Assembly: GCA_040901675.1 (NCBI GenBank)
Contig: JBBDYJ010000014.1
Location: 39,305 to 103,304 of the forward strand
Reading direction: 5' to 3'
Length of the DNA stretch: 64,000 nt
Source of the DNA: Pirellulales bacterium
Lineage (GTDB): Bacteria > Planctomycetota > Planctomycetia > Pirellulales > JAICIG01
Shown here: positions 36,104 through 38,527 of the stretch, piece by piece
Numbering within the stretch: the first letter of the stretch is position 1
How the letters are laid out: every line of letters starts with the position of its first letter
Made by a program: the position numbers and the translations under genes
Notes under the pieces: model-generated
What the model was told of the DNA's origin: nothing
Database searches by the model: none
The model's input: only the letters and a program-made list of their open reading frames with translations

Positions 36104-37012
36104 ATGCAAAGAATGAAAGTAATTCCGGCGGAAGTATTGGGGATGTGTTTCGGCGTTCGGGATGCCCTGCGCCGGGCCATGCTCGTTGAACGTCCGGACC
36201 AGACGACGATCGATGGCGAGCTGGTACACAACCGCGTGGTGCTGGAGCGACTCGAACTGCGCGGCTTCCGCCAGACGGCCGAGCAGGGGCGTCGCGAGAT
36301 ACCGGCGACGCCGTCCGTCCTGATCACCGCCCATGGGATCAGCGACAGCCGGCGATTGCGGCTGCTCGAGTCGGGCAGCCAGTTGATCGACACCACCTGC
36401 CCGCTGGTGCGGCGCGTCCACGAGGCGGCCGGGCAGCTCCAGCGCGAGGGCTTCCATGTGCTGGTCCTGGGGAAGCCGGGGCACGTGGAGGTCCAGGGCG
36501 TGGTCGAAGATCTCGACAGTTGTGACGTGGTCGGCGCCCCGGAACAAGTGCGAGCGTTTGGTCATTCACGGCTGGGCATCGTCTGCCAGACCACCATGCC
36601 CGTACACCTGGCCGACGAGCTTTGCCGGCTCATTCGCTGCCACAACCCGCACGCCGAGATCCGGTTCATCGACACCGTCTGTGAACCGACGCGCCGCAGG
36701 CAGCAAGCCATGGAGGCATTGCTGCCGCAAGTGCAGGCCGTCGTCGTGGTCGGCGGGCGCAACTCGAACAACACGCTGCAACTAGTCGCCCTGTGCAACC
36801 AGCACGATGTGCCGGTGTTGCACGTCGAGAGCGCGGCCGAGCTGGATGCGGCCTGGCTCGCCCGCTATCAAACCGTCGGCCTGGCTGCCGGCACTTCCAC
36901 GCTCGACGAGACGATCGCCGAGGTCCACGAAGCACTGAACCGTTATCCGGCGCAGCAGAGCACGAGTGAATGTTCTCGTGCTGGGAGTACCAAACCCAAT
37001 CCAAGGACCTAA
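36104..37012 (+). CDS. ispH: 4-hydroxy-3-methylbut-2-enyl diphosphate reductase
   Basis: Three conserved Cys regions (MCFGV, TTCPLV, DTVCEPT) plus LITAHG and VVGGRNSNNT motifs. Confidence 0.9.
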   Translation: MQRMKVIPAEVLGMCFGVRDALRRAMLVERPDQTTIDGELVHNRVVLERLELRGFRQTAEQGRREIPATPSVLITAHGISDSRRLRLLESGSQLIDTTCPLVRRVHEAAGQLQREGFHVLVLGKPGHVEVQGVVEDLDSCDVVGAPEQVRAFGHSRLGIVCQTTMPVHLADELCRLIRCHNPHAEIRFIDTVCEPTRRRQQAMEALLPQVQAVVVVGGRNSNNTLQLVALCNQHDVPVLHVESAAELDAAWLARYQTVGLAAGTSTLDETIAEVHEALNRYPAQQSTSECSRAGSTKPNPRT

Positions 37013-37015
37013 CGG

Positions 37016-38527
37016 ATGCGTCTCCTTCCGATGCCGCAGGCCATGCGGATTGCACCGCGGCTTGACCCAGAGTTGCAAGTAGGGCCTGTTACCGGGCGGC
37101 GCGCACTCTTGATCAATCCCTTTTATCCTAAGGACCCGCACGCGAGCTTCGGCAAGCACGTGCTGACGCCCAGCCTGGCCCTGACGAGCGTGGCGGGCAG
37201 CACACCGCCCAATTGCGACGTGGCCTATTGGGATGAAAATCTTCTGCAGGGCCCACCGCCTTGGCGGCCTTTTCCGCAGGTGGTCGGCATCACCGTGCAT
37301 CTGACCTTTGCCGAGCGGGCGTATGCACTGGCGCGGTGGTACCGCCAGCGCGGGGCGAAAGTGATCTTGGGCGGGCTGCACGTATTATCCTGTCCCCAGG
37401 AGGCTGAGCCGCACGCCGATGCCTTGGCGATCGGCGATGGCGTGCACGTATGGCCGCGGATCCTCCGCGACATCGAAGCCGGCCGTCTGGAGCGCGTCTA
37501 CCGCGGGGATTACCGGCGGCCTTATCGCGACGACCCGCCGCCTCGCCGCAGCTTGCTGCCCCGCCGCGGTTTCTTGACGACATCCAGCCTGATCGCCACG
37601 CGCGGTTGTCACAACCGCTGCGGATTCTGCTATCTGTCCACCGAGGGCTTGCACATGCCTTACCTGGTCCGCGACGTCGAGCAGATCGTGGCCGAGTTTC
37701 GCGCCGATGACCAGCCCTATGGCGTGTTCATCGACAACAATCTCGGTTCCCGGCCTGAGTACTTGCGCCGCCTCTGCCGGGCAGTGGCGCCTTTGGAAAA
37801 AATCTGGAGCGCCGCGGTCACGATCGACGTGACCGACGATCCCGACCTCGTTCGCGAGATGGCGCTGGCCGGTTGCACGGGAGTCTTCGTTGGATTCGAG
37901 TCGCTTCAGAACGATAATATCGTCGCCGCCCACAAGAAAAGCCCCCGTCCGGACGACTACGCGCGGCGGGTTGAGGTGCTGCATCGTCACGGAATCCAGG
38001 TGAACGGCAGCTTCGTGCTCGGCTTCGACCACGACCGGCCGGACGTGTTCCAGAATACCGCTCGCTGGATCGAAGAGAACCGCCTCGAATGCGCGACATT
38101 TCACATTCTCACGCCCTACCCCGGCACACCACTTTTTGCCCAGATGGAGGCCGAGGGACGGCTGTTGCACAAGGACTGGAGTCTGTACGACACCGGCCAC
38201 GTCGTCTTTCGGCCGCGGCACCTCTCGGTGGACGAACTGGCCGAGGGTTACGCCTGGTGCTACCGCCGGTTGTTCTCACACCGCTCCATCTGGCGGCGGC
38301 GCCCGCGTGACGTTCGGGCGGTTCCGCCGTACTTGGCAATGTCCTACCTCTACAAGCGGTCGAACCTGTTCTGGCACTTTCTGATTCGCCACCAACTCAC
38401 CGGCCTGGTCTGGCGGCCCTTGGTCGAGATTACGCGCCGCCGGCATCTGCGATTCCGCGCACGGCTGGCGGGCGCCGCTTCGCCCCTGGGCCGGCAAACT
38501 GGCACTGTTGTTTCACCCGGCGTTTGA
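37016..38527 (+). CDS. B12-binding radical SAM protein (class B rSAM methyltransferase-like, DUF4070-type C-terminus)
   Basis: N-terminal B12-binding Rossmann domain; CHNRCGFC (CxxxCxxC) radical SAM motif; 503 aa. Confidence 0.85.
   Translation: MRLLPMPQAMRIAPRLDPELQVGPVTGRRALLINPFYPKDPHASFGKHVLTPSLALTSVAGSTPPNCDVAYWDENLLQGPPPWRPFPQVVGITVHLTFAERAYALARWYRQRGAKVILGGLHVLSCPQEAEPHADALAIGDGVHVWPRILRDIEAGRLERVYRGDYRRPYRDDPPPRRSLLPRRGFLTTSSLIATRGCHNRCGFCYLSTEGLHMPYLVRDVEQIVAEFRADDQPYGVFIDNNLGSRPEYLRRLCRAVAPLEKIWSAAVTIDVTDDPDLVREMALAGCTGVFVGFESLQNDNIVAAHKKSPRPDDYARRVEVLHRHGIQVNGSFVLGFDHDRPDVFQNTARWIEENRLECATFHILTPYPGTPLFAQMEAEGRLLHKDWSLYDTGHVVFRPRHLSVDELAEGYAWCYRRLFSHRSIWRRRPRDVRAVPPYLAMSYLYKRSNLFWHFLIRHQLTGLVWRPLVEITRRRHLRFRARLAGAASPLGRQTGTVVSPGV

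Follow-up and report, generated by a model that had tools for sequence, protein, structure and literature searches.

A radical SAM protein encoded beside ispH in a Pirellulales bacterium and its proposed place in a carrier-lipid and envelope regulon

The 64,000-nucleotide stretch of a Pirellulales genome analyzed here (contig JBBDYJ010000014.1 of assembly GCA_040901675.1; called the window in the following) encodes, directly downstream of ispH, a protein of the radical S-adenosylmethionine (SAM) superfamily, termed rSAM from here on. The question that this locus raises is on which substrate such an enzyme might act and in which process the pair takes part. The two co-directional open reading frames (ORFs) were found exactly where the first-pass annotation had placed them, and the 503-residue rSAM starts 3 nt past the ispH stop codon (Table 1). 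That annotation had taken rSAM for a candidate methylase of hopanoids or other isoprenoids. We find that the unit is wider than the pair and consists of an operator, a gene for a membrane protein (orf216), a gene for a winged-helix regulator (wHTH), a second operator, ispH, rSAM and a DUF4153 gene (34976-40314). Comparative genomics points to a regulon that is made up of this operator, this regulator module, isoprenoid, carrier-lipid and envelope genes, and two rSAM subfamilies. In our judgement the chances are even that rSAM, as yet uncharacterised, is a radical SAM enzyme whose substrate is an isoprenoid or polyprenyl lipid and which belongs to this new carrier-lipid and envelope regulon.

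Operator, regulator module and regulon content

Within the 64 kb there are exactly two copies of the 17-bp palindrome ACTTTGCAATGCAAAGT, where 0.07 sites with up to three mismatches would be expected and where none of 100 shuffled sequences gave two or more matches. The palindrome had been described as bracketing the ispH-rSAM pair, but both copies lie upstream of ispH and none follows rSAM; instead, the two copies flank the orf216-wHTH operon. Copy 1 overlaps what may be a -10 region, located 17 nt past the sequence TTGACA (34952-34957). Such a promoter overlap of the operators, which was read by eye, is likely, and a formal promoter scan returned no site and nothing above background.

For comparison, orthologous loci were collected from contigs of one genome per species, which gave 80 loci. 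At 49 of the 76 loci that could be evaluated, a palindrome with no more than three mismatches stands within 260 nt upstream of the first gene of the operon (ispH or rSAM), and the median distance from palindrome to start codon is 50 nt. The operator consensus in the proposed regulon is ACTTTGYA-N-TRCAAAGT, that over the orthologous loci ACTTTGYA-W-TRCAAAGY, and the pattern can also be written as ACTTTGYANTRCAAAGT. Most of the related loci have the palindrome in front of their orf216 homolog, and it is also present at many loci that have no regulator gene nearby, among them loci of Acidobacteriota, Gammaproteobacteria and Verrucomicrobiota. Operators are often paired at a distance of 20-25 bp, or about two helical turns (L015, L018, L022, L025, L028, L049, L069 and others), which suggests cooperative binding of two regulator dimers.

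The first gene of the regulator module, orf216, has an ORF that opens at ATG 34984, inside operator copy 1, so that the real start is probably ATG 35011 or ATG 35026. Six transmembrane segments were read from its sequence, and no Pfam or NCBIfam model matches it even at E ≤ 10. Homologs of orf216 (28-95% identity, most 37-66%) lie directly upstream of a wHTH gene at 31 of the 80 genome loci and at about 44 of the metagenome loci listed (at least 120) that were selected by the palindrome as described below; orf216 and wHTH together stand upstream of rSAM in about 31-35 of the 80 orthologous loci. The probable TTG start of wHTH at 35631 overlaps the orf216 stop codon (TGA 35632-35634). The wHTH protein scores 71.1 bits against HTH_34 (cutoff 27) and 39.6 bits against the ArsR/SmtB model NF033788, below the cutoff of 55, and therefore passes only the general HTH_34 model; its nearest solved structure is PH1061 (1ub9). 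Searches of the literature turned up nothing on HTH_34 (PF13601), on the regulator, on the operator or on the function of DUF4153.

In other lineages, some of them of low GC content, the palindrome precedes different polytopic membrane proteins of about 200-240 residues (L099, L117, L190 and L194; L119 and L175; L086), whose sequences show no detectable resemblance to orf216. In L190, L119 and L086 the next gene is of the HTH_34 type, L099 has its only HTH_34 match at a distance of about 1.2 kb, and L117, L194 and L175 gave no such match. Where both genes are present, the design of a membrane partner with a wHTH seems to be older than the sequences themselves.

Gene content was assessed by scanning metagenome contigs for the exact pattern ACTTTGCANTGCAAAGT, that is, for the palindrome only. 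Among the loci listed, at least 120, 62 carry one or more of five query genes; 60 of these have orf216 and/or wHTH (57 the wHTH itself) and the other two have rSAM only. We then counted which gene stands directly after wHTH on the same strand, which could be done at 65 loci among the matches listed. An rSAM gene of the B12 type holds this position most often (16 loci), followed by ispH (14), creD and uppS (11 each), while PAP2 phosphatase, DUF4153 (L161) and HMG-CoA synthase were seen there once each and the remaining loci have other singletons. Three more PAP2 genes lie directly beside palindromes and one more DUF4153 gene (L081, 248.9 bits) follows a palindrome. In most of these loci a second palindrome separates wHTH from the next gene. 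Checks with profile hidden Markov models gave 373.7 bits (Pfam) and 376.8 bits (NCBIfam, cutoff 275) for CreD, 234.9 bits (Pfam) and 222 bits (TIGR00055, cutoff 110) for UppS, 47.2 bits for PAP2, and 89 and 53 bits for HMG-CoA synthase.

The link between rSAM and isoprenoid enzymes takes different forms in different phyla. Among the 80 orthologous loci ispH directly precedes rSAM in 18, and one more locus (L069) has it some 2.5 kb upstream; rSAM directly after ispH is found in Pirellulales and in Verrucomicrobiota. At six loci of Acidobacteriota/Thermoanaerobaculia (L048, L053, L055, L061, L062 and L080) it is uppS that directly precedes an rSAM ortholog of 74-78% identity, and in L053 the order is wHTH, uppS, rSAM. 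Also, a sister rSAM subfamily (representative P0163), whose members are 36-39% identical to rSAM of the window and 74-86% identical among each other, lies behind the same operator (L098, L111, L129, L150, L178, L198, L182 and L201), usually after uppS or creD. In L098, L111, L129 and L178 it directly follows uppS, with a stop/start overlap in L098, L129 and L178, and in L098 and L198 it is part of a CreD operon. One contig of this subfamily has a divergent gene for a Bac_transf protein, a family which we take to be the polyprenyl-phosphate sugar-phosphate transferases (phosphoglycosyl transferases).

De novo clustering of the ORFs around the 80 orthologs found recurring partners only in orf216, wHTH and ispH, to which uppS and DUF4153 were added when clusters were labelled later; all other neighbour clusters were shadow ORFs that overlap rSAM. 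DUF4153 homologs occur near rSAM in the Verrucomicrobiota loci L049, L069 and L070, and elsewhere DUF4153 is an independent member of the same regulon. In Planctomycetota rSAM is the most frequent cargo of the regulon. As far as we can tell, a regulon in which a radical SAM enzyme is joined with genes for isoprenoids and the carrier lipid is undescribed.

Conservation, domains and predicted fold of rSAM

A search for relatives among 5.8 billion proteins returned more than 7,600 matches, of which the best 120 are 77-97% identical to rSAM. Orthologs remain 70-81% identical across phyla and are found in Planctomycetota (Pirellulales, Gemmatales, Isosphaerales and Phycisphaerae), in Acidobacteriota, in Verrucomicrobiota, in some Gammaproteobacteria and in a metagenome-assembled genome (MAG) of Polyangium. 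In a protein library clustered at 50% identity, full-length members of the family collapse essentially to one representative (69%), the next full-length relatives (P0136, P0134 and P0130) are about 49-56% identical, and the bulk lies at 40-45% and below. By these comparisons the family is a separate tight clade with more than 70% identity inside; among enzymes it is a new subfamily, still uncharacterised, within a superfamily already known.

At the same loci the neighbours of rSAM are more diverged, with identities of 38-63% for IspH, 34-76% for wHTH and 28-74% for orf216 (the near-identical locus L001 set aside); ranges of 42-63%, 41-76% and 41-74%, respectively, were also recorded. Judged by these identities, rSAM is among the most conserved proteins of its loci and better kept than the adjoining IspH. 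An identity of 70-81% next to far lower values in the same loci argues for constraint rather than recent transfer, and recent horizontal transfer was rejected as the cause because co-linear neighbours have diverged to 34-63%.

The motif CHNRCGFC, which the first-pass annotation had pointed out, occupies residues 198-205, and its three cysteines (C198, C202 and C205) are invariant in an alignment of 80 family sequences. With 54.3 bits against Radical_SAM (PF04055, cutoff 29.5) the protein is a member of the superfamily. The DUF4070-like C-terminus was confirmed as well, if narrowly (24.1 bits, cutoff 22). For the B12 domain the outcome was divided: the match to B12-binding (PF02310) is sub-threshold (18.1 bits, cutoff 32.1) and spans only the C-terminal half of that model, but an N-terminal Rossmann-like domain is present in the predicted structure, and precomputed annotation has several orthologs above the PF02310 threshold. 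A confident AlphaFold model made from the 80-sequence alignment (predicted local distance difference test, 92.6; predicted template modelling (TM) score, 0.91) shows this beta-alpha Rossmann-like domain, the partial TIM barrel of the rSAM core and a long C-terminal helical region. A Foldseek search of the PDB with this model gave AprD4 first (TM score 0.65), followed by TsrM, MgmA, CysS, TokK and OxsB, all of which have the same two-domain architecture, and AprD4 was also the best match among solved proteins in a phmmer search (E = 2.2e-9). Polar residues of the N-terminal domain are well kept in the wider family (GG-x-H at 119-122, E129, H133, D135 and W146), which suggests a bound cofactor. 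The modelled rSAM thus has a two-domain architecture that resembles the B12 type, and binding of cobalamin is putative.

Elsewhere in the window, on the minus strand, a cobalamin riboswitch (61682-61866; 85.8 bits, gathering score 31.5) is located directly upstream of a gene for a TonB-dependent receptor with Plug and beta-barrel domains (59578-61644), probably a BtuB-like B12 importer. Riboswitch and receptor suggest, as circumstantial evidence, that the organism imports B12.

Proposed function and competing explanations

In the mechanism that we propose, the ArsR-like wHTH would be made together with its six-transmembrane partner, would bind the palindrome and would act most likely as a repressor. 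Since the operators probably overlap promoter cores, those of the operon that encodes the regulator itself and of ispH-rSAM, we infer that wHTH is an autoregulated repressor, which the co-translated membrane protein may modulate in an organisation like that of SdpR and SdpI. Across Planctomycetota, Verrucomicrobiota, Acidobacteriota and other lineages, comparison of the loci shows that the operator precedes genes for isoprenoid precursors (ispH and HMG-CoA synthase), for synthesis and probable recycling of the polyprenyl carrier lipid (uppS and the PAP2 phosphatase), for envelope membrane proteins (CreD and DUF4153), and for the two sister rSAM subfamilies. As a core member rSAM would most likely modify an isoprenoid or polyprenyl lipid; this substrate class is suggested by the tight coupling of rSAM, in different phyla, to two different enzymes of isoprenoid synthesis. 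The candidate substrate is what the co-translated cis-prenyltransferase makes, undecaprenyl (di)phosphate, or some derivative of it, and the C-terminal amphipathic helices of rSAM would suit a lipid substrate. The weakest step is the chemistry, presumably radical chemistry derived from SAM and possibly a cobalamin-dependent C-methylation, with cyclisation or cobalamin-independent chemistry as in AprD4 as further options.

A more detailed version has a cross-phylum circuit for carrier-lipid homeostasis, in which the six-transmembrane protein would sense lipid status or envelope damage, the ArsR-like protein would be the repressor, rSAM would modify the universal carrier lipid itself, for instance by C-methylating or cyclising undecaprenyl (di)phosphate, and the supply of precursors and undecaprenyl phosphate would be raised. 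We think that this version, taken as a whole, is unlikely to be right. We know of no C-methylation or cyclisation of the undecaprenyl carrier lipid in bacteria.

Several known systems resemble parts of this proposal. In Bacillus subtilis the ArsR-type autorepressor SdpR is sequestered by SdpI, a membrane protein of about 200 residues with six transmembrane segments. The likeness, a small ArsR-like wHTH, a co-transcribed polytopic protein of about 200 residues and a palindrome at the regulator's promoter, is one of organisation only: wHTH scores 21.4 bits against the SdpR model (cutoff 100), orf216 has no SdpI match, the gene order is reversed, and the genes controlled are of an isoprenoid and envelope regulon and not of toxin immunity. 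Sigma-M of B. subtilis with its membrane anti-sigma complex and CrtR of Corynebacterium, a repressor that senses isoprenoid pyrophosphates, adjust the supply of isoprenoids or undecaprenyl phosphate. They share with the proposed regulon the logic of a membrane-linked or metabolite-sensing regulator of this supply, but they belong to other regulator families (an extracytoplasmic function sigma factor and MarR, respectively) and include no B12-type radical SAM enzyme. As to the reaction, enzymes with the B12-type radical SAM fold, the ring synthases GrsA/GrsB, the methylase Gmm and MoeK5, methylate or cyclise unactivated carbons of isoprenoid chains (PMC11214058, PMC13459092). By description, not by sequence, these differ in belonging to archaeal tetraether or antibiotic pathways, whereas the rSAM family is bacterial, tied to a cis-prenyltransferase and IspH, and putatively controlled by a repressor.

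A number of points weigh against the proposed role of rSAM. The substrate was assigned from gene association, and binding of wHTH to the palindrome is deduced from their co-occurrence. At about half of the orthologous loci the operator is followed by rSAM alone and no isoprenoid gene adjoins it, and some of the listed palindrome loci must be chance matches. The regulated ispH and uppS copies, seen at the loci only, may be additional paralogs or the housekeeping genes themselves. Neither CreD nor DUF4153 is an isoprenoid enzyme, so that a general envelope-stress regulon with a non-isoprenoid target of rSAM is conceivable. Cobalamin dependence is putative, given the sub-threshold Pfam match and a best structural match, AprD4, that is not known to use cobalamin. 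Finally, the literature searched yielded no paper on the rSAM family or on any radical SAM enzyme linked to uppS, and no biochemical or genetic data for any member of the family.

The envelope-stress explanation holds that rSAM modifies an envelope component other than an isoprenoid, for instance lipid A, peptidoglycan, a protein or a fatty-acyl chain, and that isoprenoid and carrier genes are co-induced only for the supply of lipid carrier. It stays under consideration because CreD, a cell-envelope integrity protein, and DUF4153 are, like uppS and ispH, frequent members of the regulon and because many rSAM genes are monocistronic behind the operator; the PAP2 family, moreover, includes lipid A phosphatases. 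We nevertheless regard it as somewhat unlikely, for rSAM is apparently translationally coupled to ispH, by the 3-nt spacer, and to uppS, by the stop/start overlap, both rSAM subfamilies show such coupling, with at least three phyla represented, and no coupling of this kind to genes for fatty acids, lipid A or peptidoglycan was seen at the loci.

Quite unlikely, in our estimate, is a cobalamin-independent radical enzyme, for instance a cyclase or an AprD4-like dehydratase, that acts on a polyprenyl-linked sugar or lipid and is not a methyltransferase. That AprD4, a radical SAM 1,2-diol dehydratase (PDB 6fd2), is the closest protein both in sequence and in solved structure and shares the two-domain fold would fit such an enzyme, as would the weak B12-binding score and the Bac_transf gene adjoining one member of the sister subfamily. 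AprD4 is, on the other hand, only about 21% identical to rSAM, the NCBIfam AprD4 model gives 48.3 bits against a cutoff of 500, and AprD4 belongs to an aminoglycoside pathway with unrelated genomic context. The conserved polar residues of the N-terminal domain, with the cofactor that they suggest, and the orthologs that pass PF02310 argue against it as well.

The first-pass annotation had proposed a hopanoid C-2/C-3 methylase of the HpnP/HpnR type and had read ispH as a hopanoid-cluster gene; taken more widely, this reading covers hopanoid and other triterpenoid ring methylases. Indeed, ispH occurs in hopanoid clusters and is mentioned in texts of hopanoid papers. HpnR, HpnP and HpnJ do share with rSAM an N-terminal domain of the B12 type (putative in rSAM), a radical SAM core with CxxxCxxC and, at the C-terminus, a helical extension with DUF4070, they act on isoprenoid lipids, the substrate class that we favour for rSAM, and HpnJ and HpnR are among its weak best NCBIfam matches. 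This agreement in architecture stands, but the layout is generic, and in a recent survey of hopanoid genes B12-binding radical SAM proteins other than HpnP form separate clades (PMC12583986). The scores fall short by wide margins: 33.6 bits against HpnR (TIGR04367, cutoff 650), 75.6 bits against HpnJ (TIGR03471, cutoff 577.6), which is the best NCBIfam match and covers only the rSAM core at 191-425, 58.6 bits against BchE (TIGR02026, cutoff 481.35) and 22.4 bits against the ladderane radical SAM model (cutoff 360), so that rSAM reaches 5-13% of the curated cutoffs for HpnR and HpnJ. The sister subfamily scores 83.9 bits against HpnR. No NCBIfam model named HpnP matches rSAM at E ≤ 0.01; the criterion used for HpnP in the survey is a similarity of about 55% or more to HpnP of R. 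palustris (PMC12583986).

The genomic context gives no better support to this assignment. The DxDDTA and QW motifs of squalene-hopene cyclase (SHC) are absent from all six frames of the window, DxDDTA was not found in ORFs of at least 300 residues at 200 related loci (about 2 Mb in total), and no hpn-type gene is among the roughly 40 annotated ORFs of the window, so that the hopanoid-cluster hypothesis was rejected. Other hopanoid genes, moreover, do not as a rule lie in one cluster with hpnP or hpnR (PMC12583986), which also speaks against the hopanoid reading. Around rSAM there are tRNA genes, the gene of the regulator, DUF4153 and genes for a WD40 protein and a GFO oxidoreductase, its conserved partners are uppS, PAP2 and CreD and not hpn genes, and ispH is upstream of rSAM in only 19 of the 80 orthologous loci. 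By its sequence, rSAM is not a recognisable hopanoid methylase and lies outside HpnR, HpnJ and BchE; that reading is close to refuted and, with any HpnP/HpnR-type ring methylase, highly improbable. What survives of the first-pass annotation is the broader idea of an isoprenoid enzyme, which the adjacency of ispH and uppS and the common operator support. These results advise against taking a B12-type radical SAM gene beside ispH as a genomic sign that methylhopanoids are produced when biomarkers are interpreted. That two Fe-S enzymes are co-regulated in response to Fe-S or oxidative stress was rejected because the regulon also includes UppS, PAP2, HMG-CoA synthase, CreD and DUF4153.

Envelope polymers such as peptidoglycan, O-antigen and capsule all depend on undecaprenyl phosphate as their bottleneck carrier, which is also a target of antibiotics. 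To our knowledge, the control of its supply in Gram-negative environmental bacteria is largely unknown. A repressor/operator regulon that ties together ispH, HMG-CoA synthase, uppS and PAP2 would offer a testable handle on this control, and the product of rSAM, once identified, might bring to light a lipid modification, and a reaction of B12-type radical SAM enzymes, not seen before.

Layout of the locus and other features of the window

The coordinates of the unit are given in Table 1. The GC content is about 64% across the window, and a near-identical contig from a Pirellulales MAG shows 97% protein identity.

Table 1. Features of the operator-orf216-wHTH-operator-ispH-rSAM-DUF4153 unit (positions in the window).
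Feature	Position	Strand	Remarks
Operator copy 1	34976..34992	.	17-bp palindrome ACTTTGCA-A-TGCAAAGT, exact match
orf216	35011..35634	+	predicted six-transmembrane protein of no known family; GC content at third codon positions 0.85
wHTH	35631..36032	+	ArsR/SmtB-like winged-helix regulator; Pfam HTH_34
Operator copy 2	36070..36086	.	identical 17-bp palindrome; ends 17 nt before the ispH start codon
ispH	36104..37012	+	4-hydroxy-3-methylbut-2-enyl diphosphate reductase, 302 residues; TIGR00216, LYTB
rSAM	37016..38527	+	radical SAM protein, 503 residues; PF04055, CHNRCGFC, DUF4070
DUF4153	38605..40314	+	polytopic membrane protein; DUF4153 76.9 bits

The first gene of the regulated operon is ispH. 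Its product scores 223.7 bits against Pfam LYTB and 223.9 bits against TIGR00216 (cutoff 187.85), and candidate cluster cysteines (C15, C99 and C193) as well as H, E and SNN motifs were read from the translation. The DUF4153 ORF begins 77 nt after the rSAM stop codon, with ATG 38653 as the likelier start, and a terminator scan found no convincing terminator in the gap; DUF4153 is probably the third gene of the ispH-rSAM operon.

The unit is surrounded by an array of 19 tRNA genes, genes for an SPFH protein, a GFO/IDH/MocA oxidoreductase and a WD40 protein, and DUF1501. Farther off are rpsB-tsf-pyrH, a cluster like those for formate dehydrogenase, PPDK and an LpxA-like gene with UDP-N-acetylglucosamine acyltransferase domains. 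The tRNA genes lie on the minus strand in two blocks (29879-30513 and 32993-34484), which end about 500 nt before operator copy 1, are parted by two protein genes (30702-31400, with no family named, and 31451-32551, SPFH/Band 7) and include the unusual anticodons tRNA-Ile(tat) and tRNA-Arg(gcg). The ORFs 33395-34105 and 34211-34696 were discarded as spurious because they overlap tRNA genes. An Rfam match to group-II-D1D4-6 at 45397-45511 (minus strand; 77.5 bits, gathering score 49) sits within a long ORF (43897-45663) whose only matches, to TPR and GT2, are weak and which overlaps DUF1501; a remnant of a group II intron or an artefact of ORF calling may account for it. The formate-dehydrogenase-like cluster (18004-23900, minus strand), which is unrelated to rSAM, encodes a molybdopterin oxidoreductase of 897 residues, an NrfD-type membrane subunit and an FdhE-like protein.

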